A stretch of DNA of 64,000 bases. It comes from an uncultured Chloroflexia bacterium. GTDB lineage: Bacteria > Chloroflexota > Dehalococcoidia > SZUA-161. Below, piece by piece: positions 8,112-64,000 of the stretch. The notes under the pieces are model-generated. The model was not told where the DNA came from. It did not search any database and saw only the letters and a program-made list of their open reading frames with translations. A program made the translations under genes and the position numbers. Position 1 is the stretch's first letter. Every line of letters starts with the position of its first letter. The DNA lies in contig CAWKAJ010000001.1 in NCBI GenBank assembly GCA_963847595.1, positions 759,263 through 823,262 of the forward strand, read 5' to 3'.

Positions 8112-9502
8112 CAATGGAAACCATTTTTTTGGAGCGATGGCTTCATAACATAATGAGACAAAGCCTCAAAGATGATGGTGAATATCGCCAATTCATAGGT
8201 AAGGATAGCCTGGCTGACATCACAAGCTCTGACGTACAAGATTTTCAACTTTACAAGCTTAAAAGAATCTTGAACTATGCATATGACAAAAGCCCCTTTT
8301 ATCATGATTTGTTTACTCGAGATGGAGTCAACCCCAATGACATCTTATCCCTGGATGCCCTGGCCAAAGTCCCCTTTACTGAGCCTTCATACATATCCAA
8401 GAACCCATATAACTTCTCATGCGTTTCTCTGGGCGAGATTGCTCGGTCAACTGTTTTCACCACATCAGGCACCACTGGCCCCCGGAAGAAGGTCTTCTGG
8501 ACCAAAGGCGACCTGGAGACAATAACTGATTTTATGGGAGCGGGCATGAAGTCATGCGTTGTGAGTGACGATGTGGTTCAAATAATGCTACGCAGTGGAA
8601 GACCAAATAGCTGCGCCGAGTTACTTGCCAGAGGTCTGGAGAAAGTGGGCGCTTTCCCCGTAATATCTGATATTTCTTTGGGCGCCGAGGAACACATCAG
8701 AGCCATTGAAGAGCATCATCCCGATGTCTTGTTTGGACGCACCGCCAGCCTTTATCGAATGAGCAAAGAAGCACAAGAGAAACACGATTTGGCCGGAATG
8801 GGGCTGAAGGCAGTCTTCGTTACTTCTGGTTATTTGTCAGAAACGATGAGAAAAGAGCTGGAAAACATTTGGGATTGCCCCGTCTTTGTCCATTACGGAC
8901 TTAACGAGATGGGCATGGCGGTTGCTGTAGAGTGTGAGGCACACCAAGGCTACCATTATGACCAGGCAGACTTCTTGGTAGAGGTAGTAGACCCATGGAC
9001 TGGTGCTACATTAGACAAGGATAAGAAAGGCGAACTCGTTATTACCACTCTCAGTAGAGAGGCGATGCCACTGATTAGATACAGAACAAACGATATTTCC
9101 TGCCTGCTAGGGAGCCCATGTGAGTGCGGATCTTCTACCCTGCAAAGGATAGGGAAGATCATCAAGAACATTGGTACAACCGTAAAAATAGGGGAAGATG
9201 TAGAGATTTTCCCATCGCTCTTCGAGGAGCTACTCTATTCCTACTCCGATGTTATCGATTATCGGGTAATTGTTAGCCGGATGGACGGTAAAGACGTCCT
9301 TACTATTAAGGTTGAGGTGAATAGGCTGTCTGATGAGGTTCGCAAGACGATAAACGAAGTGATATTGAGAGCTGAACCAATAAAAAGGAGCTTGGAATCA
9401 GGGAACCTAGCTTTGCCGCGGATAGAGTTGGTAAACCAAGGAGAATTCGAGAGCTTTCTCAGGACTAGAAGACCCATTATAGACGAGCGAACACATTTCT
9501 AA
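8102..9502 (+). CDS. Phenylacetate-CoA ligase / coenzyme F390 synthetase-like adenylate-forming enzyme
   Basis: TTSGTTGPRKKVFWT AMP-binding motif and ~465 aa PaaK-like length. The start overlaps the radical SAM stop by 10 nt. Confidence 0.85.
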   Translation: MSLAMETIFLERWLHNIMRQSLKDDGEYRQFIGKDSLADITSSDVQDFQLYKLKRILNYAYDKSPFYHDLFTRDGVNPNDILSLDALAKVPFTEPSYISKNPYNFSCVSLGEIARSTVFTTSGTTGPRKKVFWTKGDLETITDFMGAGMKSCVVSDDVVQIMLRSGRPNSCAELLARGLEKVGAFPVISDISLGAEEHIRAIEEHHPDVLFGRTASLYRMSKEAQEKHDLAGMGLKAVFVTSGYLSETMRKELENIWDCPVFVHYGLNEMGMAVAVECEAHQGYHYDQADFLVEVVDPWTGATLDKDKKGELVITTLSREAMPLIRYRTNDISCLLGSPCECGSSTLQRIGKIIKNIGTTVKIGEDVEIFPSLFEELLYSYSDVIDYRVIVSRMDGKDVLTIKVEVNRLSDEVRKTINEVILRAEPIKRSLESGNLALPRIELVNQGEFESFLRTRRPIIDERTHF

Positions 9503-11053: not shown

Positions 11054-11104
11054 TACTCGACCTCCGATTCTTTCTCCATAATTATTGAAAGAGACATTAT
11101 AATA

Positions 11105-11116
11105 GTAAGTACTTAC
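11105..11116. promoter_or_regulatory. Perfect 12-bp palindrome GTAAGTACTTAC, candidate TetR operator upstream of the MFS gene
   Basis: Lies between the TetR stop and the MFS start. Related to the palindrome at 11817-11838. Confidence 0.5.
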
Positions 11117-11175
11117 AAAGATATTTTCTTATTAAAAAAGGATGCTTCAATACGCAACCCTATTGTCATCCTGTT

Positions 11176-57553: not shown

Positions 57554-60262
57554 TCACGAGAGCCTGATTCGGGCATCGACTACCGCATACCCGCGTTCCA
57601 ATGCCTTCAACGGATTAAGGTCCATCTCCATTATCTGCGGAAAATCTTCTACCATCGCCGAAACCCTCAGCAAGAGTTCCTCAAGCGCCTTTATGTCGGA
57701 GGGCTTCGCCCCTCTCCAGCCTTCGAGGAGTCGATAGGCTTTGATAGAACGCACCATCTCCTGAGCATCGATATCTGACAGCGGATGAATGCGAAACACG
57801 GCGTCTTTGAACAGCTCGGTATAAATGCCGCCCATGCCGAACATGATAAGCGGACCGAAAGACGGGTCCTGGGTTACACCGACGATCACCTCGACTCCCT
57901 CCGTCACCATCTTCTGAACGAGCACCCCGTCCATCTCACCTTCTTTTGAGATACGGGCCAGGCGCTCCTTTATCTGAAGGAAAGCCCCCCGTGCCTCATC
58001 CTCCGAATGGACATCCAGGACCACGCCGCCAACCTCCGTCTTATGGATTATTGTCCTGGAGACGAGTTTCACCGCGACGGGAAAGCCCATCGCCTTGGCT
58101 GCCTTCATCGTCTCCTCAGCCGTCCTGGCCGTCTTCGATTCCACCACACGAACGCCATAGCACCCCAGTAGTTCGTTGACGGAATCAGCGTCAAGCCAGA
58201 AGGGGCGAGCCTGGTCTTGCTTCAATGCTGAATTCACTATCTGCTCAGCCCGCTTCTTATCGATACCCGCCAGTTCCGGGATTGTCCCCTTCGGTCTCCT
58301 CAGCCATTCGCCGTACTCGCAAGCCGCAGCGAGTGCAGTAGCAGTAGCCTCCGGGAAGGTAAAGGAAGGGACATAACCCTCCTCGCGAGAGCCCAGCTCT
58401 ATGGAGGCGCCGCGCGAGCCCATGAACGAAGCCAGAAGAGTCTTGCCGCGCTGTCGGAACTGCGGCGCAACCTCCCGAATGGCACTGGCTACCGCTTCCG
58501 CCTGCGTAACTATGGGCGGGATGAAGATAACTATCACTATGTCTATGCTCTCGTCCTGCGCCATGAGATTGAGAGCTTTCCTGTATTGCTCGGCAGTAGC
58601 TTCGGCAGTCATATCGATAGGGTTAGTGACATTAGCCCGGGGCGGCAGGAAAGTCTCCAGCTCTGAAATGGTCTTCTCGGAGAGGACAGGCAATTCAATG
58701 CCCCTCGCCGCACAGGCGTCCGCAGTCATTATCCCCGGCCCGCCGCCGTTGGTAATTATGGCCAGTCTTCTCCCCGACGGTATGGGCTGGTGAGTTAGCA
58801 GGTTCGCCACATCGAACAGCTCCTCCAGCGTATCCACACGGATGAGGCCTGCCTGCCAGAACAGGGCTCCCGCAAGCACCTCGGTGGTGGCCAGCGCCCC
58901 CGTATGCGATGCGGCAGCCCTGGAGCCTGCTGAAGTGCGCCCGCTCTTCACCGCTATTACCGGCTTGGTCTCTGCCACGCTGCGGGCTATGCGAGCGAAT
59001 TTTCGGGGATTGCCGAAAGATTCCAGGTAAAGCAGGATGACGTGAGTAGCCGGGTCTTCTTGCCAGTACTGGAGGAGGTCATTGTTCGATACGTCAGCCC
59101 TGTTCCCCAGGCTGACGAAGGTCGACAGCCCCAAATTCAGGCTTTGCGCATATTCCAGAATGGCAAGCCCCAGGGCGCCGCTCTGGGTGCCGAAGGCGAC
59201 GCTTCCCGCAGGAGGGTAGACCAGGGAGAAAGTGGCATTCATATTGACATTCTTACCGGTATTTATTATCCCCATACAATTTGGGCCGACCAGACGCATC
59301 CCGTATGCGCGAGCTGTCTCCAGCAGTTTTCTCTCCTCCTCCTTGCCTTCGGAACCGCTTTCCCCGAAGCCGGCCGATACTATTACAACGCCGCGCACAC
59401 CCTTTCGCCCGCACTGCTCCAGGACCTGATGCACTCCCTCTGCTGGAACAATAATCACTGCCAGGTCTACATCTCCCACAATGTCGAGAACGGACGGATA
59501 CACCTTGACCGAAGCCACCATCTCGGCATTCGGGTTCACCGGATATGCAATTCCGTTGAAACCCTGCAGCAGCAAATTGCGGAACAGCGTATGGCCTATA
59601 CTCCCCTCTCTTCGCGAAGCGCCGATAACAGCTATGGAGCGGGGCGCGAGAAAAGCTCTTAGAGAAGCTATAGTGGCGACTTTCTCCCGCTCAGCGGACT
59701 TCTCTTCCACCGCAGGAGTCGGTGCAATATCCAGAACCACGCGGTAAACGCCTGAGTCGACCTGGTTCGCTACCCGGAAGCCGCTGTCCCTCATCACATT
59801 CATCATTTGCTCGTTCTCCACCAGCACCTCAGCCTCAAAACGCCTTATCTTTTTCTCTCTCGCTATCGTGGCCAACTGCTCCAGCAACTGGGTCCCGATG
59901 CCTCTCTGCTGGTACGCATCCTCGACCACCAGGGCCATCTCGGCAGCATCGCCCTTGGGAAGCCGCGCATAGCGTCCCACAGCGATAATTTTCTCCTCAG
60001 CCTCCTCCCCGGAAGTTGCCACCAGGGCAAAAGTATTATCGTAATCTACGGTGCAGAAGCGCCGTGCTTGCTCTTTAGGCAGATTTGTCAAGACCTGGTG
60101 AAACCTCAGATAGATAGTATGGGGGCTCATGCGATAGAAAAAAGCGAGCAGTCTCTCCTCGTCATCCTGCCGGATGGGCCGCAGATGTAAAGTAGCGCCA
60201 TCCTTGAGTATTACTGCTGTCTCGTATTTGTCCAGGCTATTGTCGCTCGGATTTCCAGTCAT
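57554..60262 (-). CDS. Bifunctional GNAT acetyltransferase / ADP-forming acyl-CoA synthetase-like protein (Pat-like, GNAT at the N-terminus)
   Basis: N-terminal GNAT (QQRGIGTQLLEQL), a CoA-binding domain (IAVIGASRREGSIGH), a ligase-CoA domain and a C-terminal ATP-grasp. 902 aa. Confidence 0.85.
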   Translation of the reverse strand: MTGNPSDNSLDKYETAVILKDGATLHLRPIRQDDEERLLAFFYRMSPHTIYLRFHQVLTNLPKEQARRFCTVDYDNTFALVATSGEEAEEKIIAVGRYARLPKGDAAEMALVVEDAYQQRGIGTQLLEQLATIAREKKIRRFEAEVLVENEQMMNVMRDSGFRVANQVDSGVYRVVLDIAPTPAVEEKSAEREKVATIASLRAFLAPRSIAVIGASRREGSIGHTLFRNLLLQGFNGIAYPVNPNAEMVASVKVYPSVLDIVGDVDLAVIIVPAEGVHQVLEQCGRKGVRGVVIVSAGFGESGSEGKEEERKLLETARAYGMRLVGPNCMGIINTGKNVNMNATFSLVYPPAGSVAFGTQSGALGLAILEYAQSLNLGLSTFVSLGNRADVSNNDLLQYWQEDPATHVILLYLESFGNPRKFARIARSVAETKPVIAVKSGRTSAGSRAAASHTGALATTEVLAGALFWQAGLIRVDTLEELFDVANLLTHQPIPSGRRLAIITNGGGPGIMTADACAARGIELPVLSEKTISELETFLPPRANVTNPIDMTAEATAEQYRKALNLMAQDESIDIVIVIFIPPIVTQAEAVASAIREVAPQFRQRGKTLLASFMGSRGASIELGSREEGYVPSFTFPEATATALAAACEYGEWLRRPKGTIPELAGIDKKRAEQIVNSALKQDQARPFWLDADSVNELLGCYGVRVVESKTARTAEETMKAAKAMGFPVAVKLVSRTIIHKTEVGGVVLDVHSEDEARGAFLQIKERLARISKEGEMDGVLVQKMVTEGVEVIVGVTQDPSFGPLIMFGMGGIYTELFKDAVFRIHPLSDIDAQEMVRSIKAYRLLEGWRGAKPSDIKALEELLLRVSAMVEDFPQIMEMDLNPLKALERGYAVVDARIRLS

Positions 60263-60390
60263 CGGTGCACTTCCTCCTCCTTCACCACACTCAACGCAGC
60301 CTCACCGGAAGTATCGGGCTGGCCACATTGCATTAGAAACAGATGCACCTAATCATACATTACATGTCAAGTTCAGAAAAGGAGGACAAA

Positions 60391-60660
60391 GCAATCTCCT
60401 CGTACTCGATAACGTTTCACATGTCATTGCGAGAAGTCCGCCTCTGGCGGACGACGAGGCAATCTCCCCGTACTCGATAACGTTTCACATGTCATTGCGA
60501 GGAGTCCCCTCTGGCGGACGACGTGGCAATCTCCCCGTACTCGATAACGTTTCACATGTCATTGCGAGGAGTCCCCTCTGGCGGATGACGTGGCAATCTC
60601 CTCGTACTCGATAACGTTTCACATGTCATTGCGAGAAATCCGCCTCTGGCGGATGCCACC
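60391..60660 (+). repeat. Tandem repeat, 4 x 67-68 bp
   Basis: Units start at 60391, 60459, 60526 and 60593. Unit: GCAATCTCCyCGTACTCGATAACGTTTCACATGTCATTGCGAGrAGTCC(G)CCTCTGGCGGAyGACGwG. Confidence 0.95.
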
Positions 60661-60949
60661 TATCAAGAAAATAGAAGACTTAGGCTTCTGTGTGTCATTC
60701 TGGGATGAGCAATGGCCACCGACAATAACACTAGAATCCGGTATCATAGTACTCGGAGTCGAACTTTGGGTCAAGCGACTCGCTGCCGTCGCTTTAGAGA
60801 ATAGTGTATTTCACGGCACAGAAAAGGTTAGCCCGCTACCTCGTTAGGCTAGCCTTCTTTGCCACCTTTCTCAGAGAACTCGCTTTATGAAATAGGCTCT
60901 ATTGTGACTTTCATGGGTTGCGGGTTGCCGCGCTCTTTAACCTGCTCTT

Positions 60950-61168
60950 TCACGGGGTAAGGACCAGGCTTCGCCTTGCGGGTTCCTTCTCCTCCTCTTT
61001 GCTAATCAGACCTGCCTTCCTGGCTGCACTGCAAGTATTGCTGTCATCATGAGTCAGGCCATTGTCATCAACAAAGATTATGGAGTTCGCCTTGAATAGC
61101 TTCTCTCTACTCCTGGCCGCATTCAGTCGCTGAAATCATTCCATAGCACCATCCTCTGTCTTATCCAT
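60950..61168 (-). pseudogene. Degenerate paralog of the small gene at 62460-62786 (in-frame TGA; the original start is frameshifted)
   Basis: MDKTEDGAME*FQRLNAARSREKLFKANSIIFVDDNGLTHDD...ARKAGLISKEEE aligns to MTEDGYMRLNAARDKEKALKDKPIVFVDDHGEVHDD...AREAGLLAKEKE. Confidence 0.65.
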
Positions 61169-61247
61169 GCCAAAAATTAGCCATTCGACATCGCTACCTC
61201 CTCTGACTCAGCATGAGTCAGCCCATGACACCAGCCCTTCTGTTTTT

Positions 61248-61275
61248 AGATTAACCCACTTTTTCGGTTTGTCAC
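61248..61275 (-). promoter_or_regulatory. Sigma70-like promoter module (GTGACA-N16-TAATCT) upstream of the degenerate small gene
   Basis: One of three copies of the same ~40-nt block. The others are at 62937-62964 and 63097-63124. Confidence 0.5.
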
Positions 61276-61418
61276 GTTCGAAACCTTTTTATTAGCGTGA
61301 ACGTATTGCATAATTTTCGTGAGTCACTGACCTGCAATAGTCGTACGGAACGTATTTATCAGTGACCTGTCGATACTAATTTATCATGAGTTGACAATGA
61401 CGAAAAAGAAGGAAGATT

Positions 61419-62523
61419 AGGCTTAGGAGGCCCACACGGATGGATGGGATATTTTGATGGGAATCGTGAACATCGTTCCTAGCCTACTCCTATCATTTGC
61501 TATGGCGGCCGGGCATCGTGACGAGGTTATGGTGTGATATCAGAAATTCTCCAGAAATTGAACGTGATGTCGTCCGTCTGTCCGTCCATTTGATATTTGA
61601 ACGATTTGGGCGAATTTGAACAGGCATTTCGGCGCATCACAGCTTCAGGGAACAACTATACCTGCCACATGGAGGAAACAGTGGGCTAATGGACTCGACT
61701 TTTGGACGTCGTAGCGACGTCGTAATTGAAGCTAAAAGTCCAACCGTCTGTTGACCATTTGAGCGGGTTTGCGGGCATGGTAAACGACATTTCGGCGGCC
61801 CCCACGTTCACGACGACTTTTTCGACTTTGGACTTTGGGGAGTGGAAAGTCCTAGGACTTTTCAGTTTCTACGTCCAAGTCGTGAAGTCGTCATTTGCCT
61901 ATTCTTTTAACATCTGGACGCTCCTGGACGGCGCTTTTTGGCGAACCACAGCACCCTGTTTGACATGGCCTAAGAACGCGTAAGGCTTAAAAGAAGAAGC
62001 CTACAATGGATGGATGGGCTATTTTAATGGGCATCGTGAACATCGTTGCCAGGCTGCCCCTATCATTTGCCATGGTGGCCGGGCATCGTGACGAGGTCAT
62101 GGTGTTATATCAGAAATTCTCCAGAAATTGAACGTGATTTCATCCGTCTGTCCGTCCATCTATCCCTTTGACATTTGAACGGATTTGGACGAATTTGAAC
62201 AGGCATTTCGGCGCACCACAGCTTCAGGGAACAACTATACCTTCCACATGGAGGAAATAGTGGGCTAATGGACTCGACTTTTGGACGTCGTAACGACGTC
62301 GTAATTGAAGCTAAAAGTCCAACCGCCTGTTGGCCATTTGAGCGGGTTTGCGGGCATGGTAAACGACATTTCGGCGGCCCCCACGTTCACGACGACTTTT
62401 TCGACTTTGGACTTTGGGGAGTCGAAAGTCCAGGACTTTTCAGGTTTCTATGTCCAAGTCTACCGCTCCATCCCTTTGGCATCTGGACGCTCCTGGACGG
62501 CGCATTTTGGCGGACCACAGCAG
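61419..62523 (+). repeat. Large tandem direct repeat, 2 copies of ~565 bp (61419-61982 and 61983-62523), apparently non-coding
   Basis: GGATGGATGGG anchors at 61438 and 62008 (570-bp period). About 90% identity with indels that break every ORF frame. Confidence 0.9.
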
Positions 62524-62786
62524 GTCGTTTGGCAAACCGCAGAAACTTGAAGGAAAATCGAGATGAGGACCGGCCCCTGGGCTTCCTTTTCCTTCGCCAG
62601 CAGTCCGGCTTCTCTGGCATCCGAGACGTTATGGACGTCGTCGTGGACTTCGCCATGGTCGTCAACAAAGACAATGGGTTTATCCTTGAGTGCCTTCTCT
62701 TTGTCCCTGGCCGCGTTGAGGCGCATGTAGCCGTCCTCGGTCATCTCCTCTTTCTTGTCTGTGCCCTGAATCATCCACGTTGCCAT
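62460..62786 (-). CDS. Small hypothetical protein (conserved part about 75 aa; the ORF tail runs into the large repeat)
   Basis: AAGGAGG RBS. A paralogous remnant lies at 60950-61168. No family recognised. Confidence 0.55.
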   Translation of the reverse strand: MATWMIQGTDKKEEMTEDGYMRLNAARDKEKALKDKPIVFVDDHGEVHDDVHNVSDAREAGLLAKEKEAQGPVLISIFLQVSAVCQTTCCGPPKCAVQERPDAKGMER

Positions 62787-62836
62787 GGTGGCCTCCTTGT
62801 GATATCACACTGAATATCACATAGCTTTGATTTATT

Positions 62837-63168
62837 CCTCCGGCGGCCCCCCGGACAAAAAGAAAGGGCTGGCCTAACTACCTGTCCGAGGAAGTGCCAC
62901 CCTTTTTTTAACTTGTATTTTTAGATCGGTACTTTTAGCTTAACCTACTTTTTGACGATGTCAAGCGACCTATTTTTGATATCAGGACCTTGTCTGCGCT
63001 GATATCAGCCTCCGGCGGCACTCCCGGGGCAAAAAGAAAGCGGCAGCTAAACTTCCTGCCCCAGGAAGTGCTGCCGCTTTTCTATCTTGTATTTTTAGAT
63101 TAACCCAGTTTTTCGACTTGTCAAGCGACCCGTTTTTGATATCAGGACCTTATCTGCGCTGATATCAG
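62837..63168 (+). repeat. Tandem duplication of a 160-172 bp module (hairpin + promoter-like block + paired TGATATCA palindromes)
   Basis: Module 1 at 62837-63008 and module 2 at 63009-63168. Hairpins at 62863-62908 and 63037-63080 carry compensatory stem changes. Confidence 0.85.
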
Positions 63169-63398
63169 GGCTGATATTATGGCTGATATCAGGGTCCTAT
63201 CTGCGCTGATATCATACTTGATATCAGGATCTTAACAGGGCTGATATCATGATATTTGGCTGAAATTTTACCACAAATTTTCCCACATTTTTATTCAAAA
63301 TGTGAAACTATTTTGTCAGCATTTTCACGGACATTTCAGCAGATTTTAGCTGAAAATTATTCTGATATCAGACTGATATCAGCGATTTTTATACTTTT

Positions 63399-63570
63399 CA
63401 TCCGTCCGCTATTTGAACAGATTTGGACTCTGCTGAACGGCGCATTTCGGCGAACCACAGCACCCTGTTTGACATGGCCTAAGAACGCGTAAGGCTTAAA
63501 AGAAGAGGCCTACAATGGATGGATAGGATATTTTGATGGGCATCGTCGACATCGCTCCCAGGCTGCCCCT
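63399..63570 (+). repeat. Partial third copy of the ~565-bp repeat (internally deleted; spans the end/start junction)
   Basis: ...CGGCGAACCACAGCACCCTGTTTGACATGGCCTAAGAACGCGTAAGGCTTAAAAGAAGAGGCCTACAATGGATGGATAGG... matches 61940-62070. Confidence 0.85.
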
Positions 63571-64000
63571 TGAGAAATTCTTGCAGCGGAACCCGGTTAA
63601 AGACTTCGACCAATTCGCACAGAGCCTTGAAAAGAAGGGGCTGCTAACTGAACCAGCGGTCGTGAGTCGGAGTCCTCGGTTTGGTACAACGAACAGGTAG
63701 GCGGGAAGCTGCTCAGTATCCTTTTCTCCAGGAACGAGTCTTTTATTCGTTGACTCCCAGGGAAAACCAGCCGTGCTGCCCTGGGCAGACCCGATAGCCG
63801 CCAGTCATCCTGAGTTCCGTTGACAAGGTTTTAACTGAATCTACCTCAATTCCCATATTTCCGAAGCTAACTATCACCAAAACTACGATTTTCAGCTTCA
63901 ATTGAAGAACTAGCTACTTCTTTTTATATACAAAAGGTACTTTTGTAAAGTATGCTGTTCACAGAGCTATGTTTCGAGAGTGCAAATAGCTTCAGCACAT

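Follow-up and report, generated by a model that had tools for sequence, protein, structure and literature searches.

A candidate attenuator-type leader cassette with two alternative folds in the duplicated control region of a putative mobile element

Introduction

In the PR'-tR'/Q system of lambdoid phages, a constitutive-looking promoter at the head of an operon is closely followed by an intrinsic terminator, the default product being a short terminated RNA (6S RNA), while the genes behind it require read-through. The CI RNA of P4 (seqA/seqC) and the c4 RNA of P1 and P7, which belong to the immunity or early regions of temperate elements, are short leader-derived RNAs complementary to nearby sequences of the same unit, and this complementarity co-varies between heteroimmune relatives. 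Classical attenuators and riboswitch platforms (trp, pyr and T-box; pT181/pIP501) possess a 5' leader with two exclusive conserved folds, an intrinsic terminator being one of the two, while in lambda sib/tI retroregulation the terminated and read-through structures differ and a long duplex is present only in read-through RNA. The immunity regions of temperate phages, finally, exhibit divergent promoters flanked by multiple short palindromes that differ between related elements, with an integrase or recombinase nearby. Here, we describe a promoter-hairpin leader cassette which resembles these systems, located at positions 60690-64000 of the window, i.e., the whole 64,000-nucleotide (nt) stretch of DNA that was analyzed, from an uncultured Chloroflexia bacterium (assembly GCA_963847595.1, contig CAWKAJ010000001.1, positions 759,263 to 823,262). 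Sequence comparison with relatives argues, on balance, that this region, which probably runs on past the window end, is a piece of an integrated, uncharacterized mobile element, and the host element is probably temperate phage-like.

The cassette is read on the minus strand of the window, which is the rightward direction of the element. In order, it would comprise element-specific operator palindromes of the TGAnnTCA type, a sigma-70-type promoter block of ~40 nt that is conserved, in the A/B type of cassette a GC-rich hairpin of ~45 nt plus U tract some 10-25 nt past the predicted start site, a segment complementary to the 5' half of this hairpin, and a Shine-Dalgarno sequence with the first gene. 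With a probability of roughly 60%, we take the cassette to be an attenuator or antitermination-type leader within a mobile element rather than a stand-alone small RNA (sRNA). In the proposed mechanism the promoter would fire and most transcripts would end at the hairpin as a ~60-75-nt RNA (~60 nt for module A and ~75 nt for module B, the two copies described below), and expression of the operon would need read-through, either leaky or promoted by a putative element factor. Read-through RNA would then refold into a more stable long helix between the 5' half of the hairpin (segment 1) and the downstream complementary segment (segment 3), which would remove the U tract from the purine-rich ribosome-binding site and leave this site open for translation. 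The palindromes would represent putative repressor sites that set immunity specificity. The sequence features, their conservation, the covariation and the genomic context are observed; that the promoters are active, that transcripts terminate at the hairpin, that the leader switches folds and that the palindromes are operators is inferred from them.

Despite its resemblance to the lambdoid PR'-tR'/Q system, the P4 CI and P1 c4 RNAs, lambda sib and the classical attenuators, the cassette is a member of none of these, since it has no Rfam match, no Q-like protein is present among the scanned proteins and its topology is wrong for a classical attenuator. Like PR'-tR', it heads a late-like operon (in L138 and L139; L numbers designate related contigs), whereas its terminator lies only ~10-25 nt from the start site, the same cassette is also found at an early operon, its downstream re-pairing segment has no counterpart in the lambda leader, and no Q-family protein or other antiterminator was found here among the scanned proteins. 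In contrast to the P4 CI and P1/P7 c4 RNAs, it shows no Rfam sequence or structure match and no indication of RNA processing, and the partner is located immediately 3' of the terminator, beside the ribosome-binding site. Searches with Rfam 15 (which includes the C4 antisense RNA, riboswitches and leaders) gave no match at the gathering score in the whole window, and at E <= 1 returned for 60000-64000 only the noise match mir-3122 (23.6 bits against a threshold of 92 bits); no tRNA or tmRNA was found.

In classical attenuators the alternative partner lies upstream of the 5' arm of the terminator and can pre-empt termination, whereas in the cassette no such upstream partner was seen, the partner being the U tract plus ~18 nt downstream of it; nor was an aptamer, a leader peptide or an antisense promoter detected in the cassette. 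The 23-bp duplex of the cassette would be long enough for an RNase III substrate, as with lambda sib/tI, yet sib is located at the 3' end of the int message and is destabilizing, while the cassette is placed in a 5' leader, for which folding predicts opening of the ribosome-binding site, not decay. As in temperate-phage immunity regions, the promoter-like sites are divergent, flanked by palindromes and, in relatives, accompanied by an integrase or recombinase. Here, however, no CI/Cro-type repressor was found in the window, the first rightward gene encodes an acidic two-domain protein without detectable fold relatives, and the control region is duplicated two or three times in tandem.

Promoter blocks and leader hairpins

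A sequence-only reading of this DNA had reported three minus-strand copies of a ~40-nt promoter block, two of which were said to be followed by hairpins with U tracts, and both observations proved correct. Block A (63097-63124; TTGACA-N16-TAATCT), block B (62937-62964; TTGACA-N16-TAAGCT, behind which 14 nt of the -10 region are duplicated) and block C (61248-61275; GTGACA-N16-TAATCT) share the pattern TTGACA-N5-AAAAA-N-T-N-GGTTAA-N-CTAAAA, to which the window contains three matches with at most one mismatch against 0.00 expected. The -35 hexamer matches consensus at 6/6 positions in blocks A and B and at 5/6 in block C, the spacer is 16 nt, and the promoter block is kept in at least 13 copies across loci. 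Block C belongs to a hairpin-less variant with orthologous blocks in L138, L143 and L146, while blocks A and B are part of modules A (63168-63009) and B (63008-62837), which are tandem paralogs with 76% identity over 175 nt. The 14-nt tandem duplication of module B covers its -10 and start region (62937-62911; TTAAGCTAAAAGTACCGATCTAAAAATAC), and is identical in L002 and present in a variant form in L001.

Hairpin A (63080-63037, with a U tract to 63031; minus strand) is of the intrinsic-terminator type and folds, with CUUUCUUUUU, at -33.8 kcal/mol (z = -5.5). By sequence it possesses the GC-rich stem-loop and the U run on the transcribed strand that characterize an intrinsic terminator. Hairpin B (62908-62863; 62856-62908 with its U tract, minus strand) is similar but eroded by a bulged G and two inner-stem mismatches, because of which it is weak alone, folding no better than shuffled sequences (z = -0.66). 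The two hairpins were reported earlier to differ in sequence yet retain their pairing; in the outer stems, three base pairs differ and 3/3 are compensated (C-G to G-C, C-G to U-A and A-U to G-C).

Two mutually exclusive conserved folds

The proposed selection on structure is supported by a comparison of 11 distinct leader copies from 8 loci, among which pairing is kept with compensatory changes. In the terminator fold, 91.9% of cells are paired and 7 pairs (17 cells) have changed on both sides, against 33-66% paired in slid controls. The sequence-only reading was incomplete in that it missed a second conserved helix, and it also overlooked the surrounding mosaic of duplicated control regions and possible plus-strand termination. 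The second helix involves segment 3, located on the minus strand at 63013-63036 in module A (the U tract plus GCCCCGGGAGUGCCGCCG) and at 62842-62862 in module B. In this alternative helix of 23 bp, the 5' arm of the hairpin and the inner hairpin pair with the U tract and ~18 nt downstream, and the terminator and alternative folds are mutually exclusive. Across the 11 leaders the alternative helix likewise has 91.9% of cells paired, with 5 pairs (9 cells) changed on both sides, against 43-60% in slid controls, while in a MAFFT alignment of 9 sequences the alternative helix reached 93.1% paired and the terminator fold 90.1%, the latter with both partners changed in 5 pairs.

The alternative helix contains G·U pairs at alignment columns 30-58 (in 11/11 leaders), 23-65 (10/11) and 31-57 (9/11). 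It consequently fits only the rightward RNA, because these pairs would be A·C on the opposite strand, and it was not predicted when plus-strand RNA was folded. With the downstream 30 nt included, the alternative helix is the minimum-free-energy fold of module A (-46.7 kcal/mol), module B (-34.3 kcal/mol) and L001 (-36.2 kcal/mol), and the pairing of both hairpin A and its alternative helix is perfect. The segments of A, L138b and L143c bind their cognate partner better than a non-cognate one, the cognate partner being the best for the most divergent copies.

Folding further suggests a link to translation. When the terminator fold is enforced in constrained folding, the purine-rich ribosome-binding site is predicted to be mostly paired, its partner being the U tract (probability of being unpaired 0.14 in L145 and 0.19 in L146a). 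In the unconstrained ensemble of L146a, whose minimum-energy fold is the alternative helix, the corresponding probability is 0.61.

The cassette at operon heads of relatives

Metagenomes of peat and sediment contain sequences related to this region. With a covariance model and a pattern scan, the promoter block or the hairpin leader was located in L001, L002, L138, L139-L141, L143, L145-L147 and L151, with 11 distinct copies of the promoter-plus-hairpin cassette among relatives. The cassette precedes the family gene (the first rightward gene, described below), a 146-amino-acid (aa) helix-turn-helix (HTH) gene (L146, 6825) and late-like operon heads (L138, 11078; L139, 11040-11160) and heads both early and late-like operons in relatives. 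The hairpin-less variant with TGAnTCA sites, i.e., the type of copy C, was found in L138, L143 (twice) and L146.

Five leaders (L145, L146a, L138b, L139-late and L151) have a ribosome-binding site and an ATG 1-15 nt after segment 3, and the RNA would for this reason be a 5' leader. Between the two options offered by the sequence-only reading, an sRNA or a leader attenuator, the position of the cassette directly before the Shine-Dalgarno sequence and start codon of several relatives' operons favors the latter. In L139 the same hairpin is present twice, at 11076-11154 within a promoter-hairpin-segment 3 cassette that heads the next operon, and at 9220-9290 in identical form, without promoter or segment 3, as a plain intergenic terminator after a 70-aa gene.

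Alternative explanations

It appears improbable that the units are stand-alone ~60-75-nt sRNA genes which act in trans as immunity or antisense RNAs like those of P1/P4 (C4/CI), and equally so that segment 3 on read-through or neighboring transcripts is their target site. Such genes would be expected to have what is seen here, i.e., a consensus -35 promoter followed at once by a strong terminator, no gene behind module A, and a complementarity between segments 1 and 3 that covaries and in which the cognate A, L138b and L143c pairs bind better, as for specificity pairs. The ribosome-binding site and ATG just past segment 3 in the five leaders, however, mark the RNA as a 5' leader, segment 1 is buried within a -30 kcal/mol stem of the terminated RNA, Rfam gave no match, the C4 antisense family included, and L139 uses the same hairpin between two genes as an ordinary terminator. 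That last hairpin, at 9220-9290, would instead suit a reading in which the hairpins are ordinary bidirectional intrinsic terminators or insulators whose closeness to a minus-strand promoter has no regulatory meaning, and which keep convergent plus-strand transcription, from the leftward promoters of the R1/R2 repeats (see below) and from downstream genes, out of the operator/promoter region. The A tract found before the hairpin in 9/11 copies is a U tract on the other strand, plus-strand RNA folds the hairpin well (-43.5 kcal/mol, z = -5.4), and the leftward promoter-like sites of R1 and R2 point at module B. We nevertheless consider both parts of this proposal unlikely: the promoter-to-hairpin arrangement is kept across divergent elements and before three different downstream genes, segment 3 covaries with the 5' half of the hairpin through G·U pairs that are possible only in minus-strand (rightward) RNA, and intact elements have no convergent genes immediately downstream.

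A further explanation concerns the window copies only and is compatible with a function of the cassette at the level of the family, namely that the whole region is inert debris in this genome, the decaying remnant of integrations and of recombination between related elements. Somewhat doubtful as a description of the entire region, it is in line with the pseudogene paralog and the truncated small gene fused to repeat DNA (see below), with the changes in L002 and L001 given in the following paragraph, with the erosion of hairpin B and the absence of module A from related strains, and with the lack of other element genes in the remaining 60 kb. It does not readily account for the perfect pairing of hairpin A and its alternative helix or for the presence of the same mosaic at ~90% identity in L001, L143 and L146, and the element may run past the window end, as suggested by the synteny of L001 and L143 with 173-, 224- and 347-aa genes.

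Several observations weigh against the interpretation of the cassette as an attenuator or antitermination-type leader. The earlier description of near-consensus promoters applies to the -35 hexamer only: the -10 hexamers (TAATCT or TAAGCT) match TATAAT at 3/6 positions, and blocks A, B and C were not called by a consensus promoter scan, since only T1, A2 and T6 are kept. The alignment consists of only 11 related sequences, with both structures derived from one of them, and part of the alternative helix (the U tract with AGGAAG) could be a product of base composition. A clear segment 3 is absent from module L146b and from the early leader of L139, the effect on the ribosome-binding site is not uniform, being absent from constrained folds of L139-late and L151, and the minimum-energy fold of L145 is the terminator state. 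Because of the A tract on their 5' side in 9/11 copies, the hairpins are plausible plus-strand terminators too. Since the alternative partner lies downstream of the U tract, classical antitermination within the same RNA is not available, and a factor that delays hairpin closure, or simple leakiness, must be assumed. No antiterminator or repressor protein was found among the scanned element proteins, almost none of which have a match in Pfam, in PHROGs or by structure; the Pfam/PHROG scan, which returned no antiterminator family, covered proteins of L139, L138, L143, L146 and L001, not all open reading frames (ORFs), and remote homologs could escape it. As regards the window copies, the small gene differs from the 95%-identical copy of L002 by 9 nonsynonymous changes and 1 synonymous change (ratio of nonsynonymous to synonymous substitution rates, dN/dS, ~2), the L001 copy of this gene is frameshifted and related strains are without module A. 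For these reasons the window copies may be non-functional, and they are probably in part relics.

Rather tentatively, the cassette could be extended to a type of cis-regulatory leader that has not been described before, an RNA switch made up of three segments, i.e., a terminator, an anti-Shine-Dalgarno U tract and a re-pairing segment, which together would couple termination to translation, used at every operon head of 'dark-matter' temperate elements of peat and sediment bacteria under the control of an unrecognizable antitermination factor and heteroimmune TGAnnTCA operators. If the attenuator or antitermination-type leader model is right, the cassette would constitute a compact, portable promoter-terminator-switch unit of ~100 nt, whose natural variants, by keeping the two alternative folds, form a ready-made system for the coupling of read-through and translation. 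It would also provide a first handle on the regulation of abundant, wholly unannotated integrative elements of peat and sediment bacteria, almost none of whose genes have counterparts in Pfam, PHROGs, PDB or known phages; the operator-like palindromes, which differ between elements, would mark immunity groups, and the conserved promoter block plus leader could be used as a search key for further elements.

A duplicated divergent control region

The mosaic at 60690-64000 is, on the sequence comparisons given here, the divergent control region of the element, duplicated as three partial copies, each rightward half of which corresponds to one 'module' of the sequence-only reading. No long ORF is present on the minus strand of 64000-60263, a stretch that precedes a 902-aa GNAT/acyl-CoA-synthetase-like gene. 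Two tandem units of ~569 nt each, R1 (62522-61954) and R2 (61953-61438), share 89% identity. These units and the segment at 63515-63789 contain, on the plus strand, a promoter-like site, a ribosome-binding site and codons 1 to 30-90 of a leftward gene, as identified by tblastn with the leftward genes of L138 (253 aa), L143 (94 aa) and L146 (57 aa). R1 and R2 (61438-62522) hold the leftward promoter, the ribosome-binding site and ~30 of these codons plus iteron clusters, while the remnant at 63515-63789, the 5' part of the leftward first gene, has a TAG at codon 4 and a frameshift. The predicted leftward promoter-like site (63469-63496, plus strand; TTGACA-N15/16-TAAGGCT) precedes the leftward ATG by 19 nt; it recurs in R1 and R2 and is kept in all R copies. 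Readings of the repeats as a CRISPR array, a type I toxin-antitoxin system or plasmid iterons were abandoned when the R units turned out to represent leftward-gene 5' ends. A type I toxin-antitoxin system is further disfavored by the small protein, which is acidic, soluble-looking and a member of a 163-182-aa family, and by the plus-strand mini-ORFs of R1/R2, which are leftward-gene 5' ends.

A conserved tail of the element (60690-60949, minus strand) is 94.6% identical to L146 6458-6716, and homology to relatives stops at ~60690. Furthermore, window positions 61485-60929 are 91% identical to L143 3356-3913, and the same mosaic is found in L143, L146 and L001 at ~90% identity, while tblastn detected none of the element's genes in the 60 kb of the window outside this region. 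The window would thus hold only the control-region part of the element, the remainder lying beyond 64000. Contigs of related strains jump from 62990 to ~63201-63205 and therefore carry a single module; L001 and L002 have one module each, not two. For annotation, the 3.3-kb 'non-coding' stretch and its small ORFs would best be treated as duplicated control regions and truncated genes, not as independent genes. On the plus strand, a 181-aa ORF (62268-62813) is located antisense to the small gene and extends into R1; it is probably spurious because its frame is not conserved in R2 or L001, though gene callers may choose it over the real small ORF. Just past the end of element homology and directly upstream of the 902-aa gene, four tandem 67-nt units (60381-60653) share a 33-nt core that is identical in 4/4 and have no significant fold on either strand (z = +0.8 and +2.0); a further copy of the unit is present in L001 (68-113), upstream of an SBF/ACR3-type transporter gene.

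Palindromes and iterons

The paired palindromes of the earlier reading were confirmed, as all 12 exact TGATATCA octamers of the 64-kb window lie within 61535-63381, where 0.93 are expected, and one pair is located upstream of promoter A and another upstream of promoter B. Ten copies form an operator-like array at 62977-63381, spaced mostly by 23-24 or 11-12 bp. The small ORF has a ribosome-binding site that is immediately preceded by GTGATATTCAGTGTGATATCAC (62799-62820, minus strand), an operator-like palindrome or 7-bp stem. Between promoter C and its ribosome-binding site, as also reported earlier, is a different palindrome, the inverted repeat CTGACTCA-tgc-TGAGTCAG (61203-61221, minus strand), which is operator-like and of the TGAnTCA type; these copy-C sites, inverted TGACTCA here, are direct repeats in L138. 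Across elements the palindromes vary between TGATATCA, CATGATATCA/ATGAGATCA, TCGATATCGA, TGACTCA, TGAATCA/TGATTCA (TGAWTCA), GGAGTCGACA and GACGTC, a pattern that would be expected for the operators of heteroimmune relatives.

Just upstream of the leftward promoter-like site, three to four phased direct repeats of ~10 nt (CGTYCAAAT) form an iteron cluster at 63410-63474 on the minus strand, with further minus-strand clusters at 62470-62534, 61901-61965, 62173-62201 and 61595-61622. Of 43 near-matches to CGTYCAAAT in the window, 17 lie within 1.9 kb, and by their sequence these clusters look like putative protein-binding sites. The ~60-nt repeats were also considered as integron attC sites, a reading that was rejected because they have no stable fold on either strand (z -0.1 to +1.3) and consist of phased direct 10-mers. 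In other metagenomes the iteron element forms the out-of-frame C-termini of the truncated family ORFs P0005, P0006 and P0008.

The small protein family and its pseudogene

The small gene noted earlier at 62460-62786 (minus strand; 108 aa) belongs to a real protein family, though it does not represent an intact member here. Its codons 1-72 (62786-62571) correspond to the N-terminal domain of the first rightward gene family, while from about codon 73 its C-terminal third is read-through into the iteron repeat that is also found at 63410-63474 and 61901-61965. A word-indexed protein search returned only 2 relatives; the family emerged from an exhaustive hidden Markov model (HMM) profile search, which yielded 20 cluster representatives. 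Its intact members (P0007, P0014 and P0020) are 163-182 aa in length and possess a second conserved domain, and the window ORF is thus a version with the N-terminal domain only. The family, which the sequence-only reading had been unable to name, has no Pfam, PHROG or PDB-sequence profile match. A model of the 72-aa domain from 4 sequences is poor (predicted local distance difference test score, pLDDT, 63.6), the N-domain reaches pLDDT >90 in a 163-aa AlphaFold model, and a Foldseek search of PDB and BFVD with the small-protein model returned nothing below E = 0.6. Two much longer proteins, P0016 (4351 aa) and P0019 (837 aa), each have four stretches matching the core of the N-domain profile (the I-V-F-V-D-D-x-G-x-x-H region), which may be a repeat module used elsewhere or a chance low-complexity match.

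The degenerate paralog reported behind the third promoter was found to be a pseudogene (60950-61191, minus strand): codon 3 has lost 1 nt and, once the frame is repaired, codon 19 is an in-frame TGA. The pseudogene is 75% identical to the small gene over 73 nt and shows 86% amino-acid identity to a 117-aa paralog in L143. Comparison of the small gene with this pseudogene gives a dN/dS of 0.2 (dN 0.40, dS ~2), which indicates that the family is or was protein-coding.

Relatives and mobile-element context

The accessory or mobile nature proposed earlier for the module is supported by comparative genomics, as relatives carry integrases or serine recombinases and nearly all of their genes are unannotatable. 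Contigs with intact family members (L138, L139-L142 and L144) display one common layout. On the left (L138-L141), a tyrosine integrase gene and a series of small genes, all leftward, are followed by a 224- or 253-aa leftward gene; in the center, a divergent intergenic region of 250-320 nt precedes the family gene as the first rightward gene; and on the right are a 420-466-aa gene, a DnaJ-domain gene (in L138-L142), a glycosyltransferase gene and many more genes. A second type (L143, L146 and L001) has 173-, 224- and 347-aa leftward genes, a multi-kb mosaic like that of the window and then the family gene; the 224-aa genes of L001 and L139, when compared, proved not to be homologous. In L143 the family gene is followed by an HTH_3 gene and a 572-aa serine recombinase gene, beside chromosomal genes. 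Large serine recombinases are present in L143 and L148, and the combination of a recombinase with element-specific genes beside chromosomal genes, by which an integrative element is recognized, was observed in relatives only.

Searches for described relatives returned none: neither blastn against phage and plasmid collections, nor tblastn of the proteins against phages and plasmids, nor scans of IMG/VR detected a relative. Scans of GTDB genomes for the hairpin pattern and of metagenome contigs for the promoter-block pattern gave chance matches only, without relatives in a BLAST check, and a back-translated protein pattern found nothing in metagenome contigs.

The 16-22-kb contigs L138 (1-15243), L139 (1-14987) and L144 encode an integrase, a DnaJ-domain protein, a GT2 glycosyltransferase and a C2H2 zinc-finger protein, with a NosD/beta-helix protein also present in L144. 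No recognizable capsid, terminase or replication genes were found on these three contigs, whose scanned proteins returned only one weak PHROG match to a tail fiber and marginal, sub-threshold Pfam matches. The contigs may belong to temperate viruses or integrative elements of a group that has not been described. On L148 (5306-10186; NCBI metagenome-assembled genome GCA_014874385.1), a truncated family member is located ~3 kb from a D5_N/DUF5906 primase-helicase gene, and the D5-type primase-helicase, a tyrosine integrase and a large serine recombinase are encoded in a row, an arrangement that suggests nested or composite elements.

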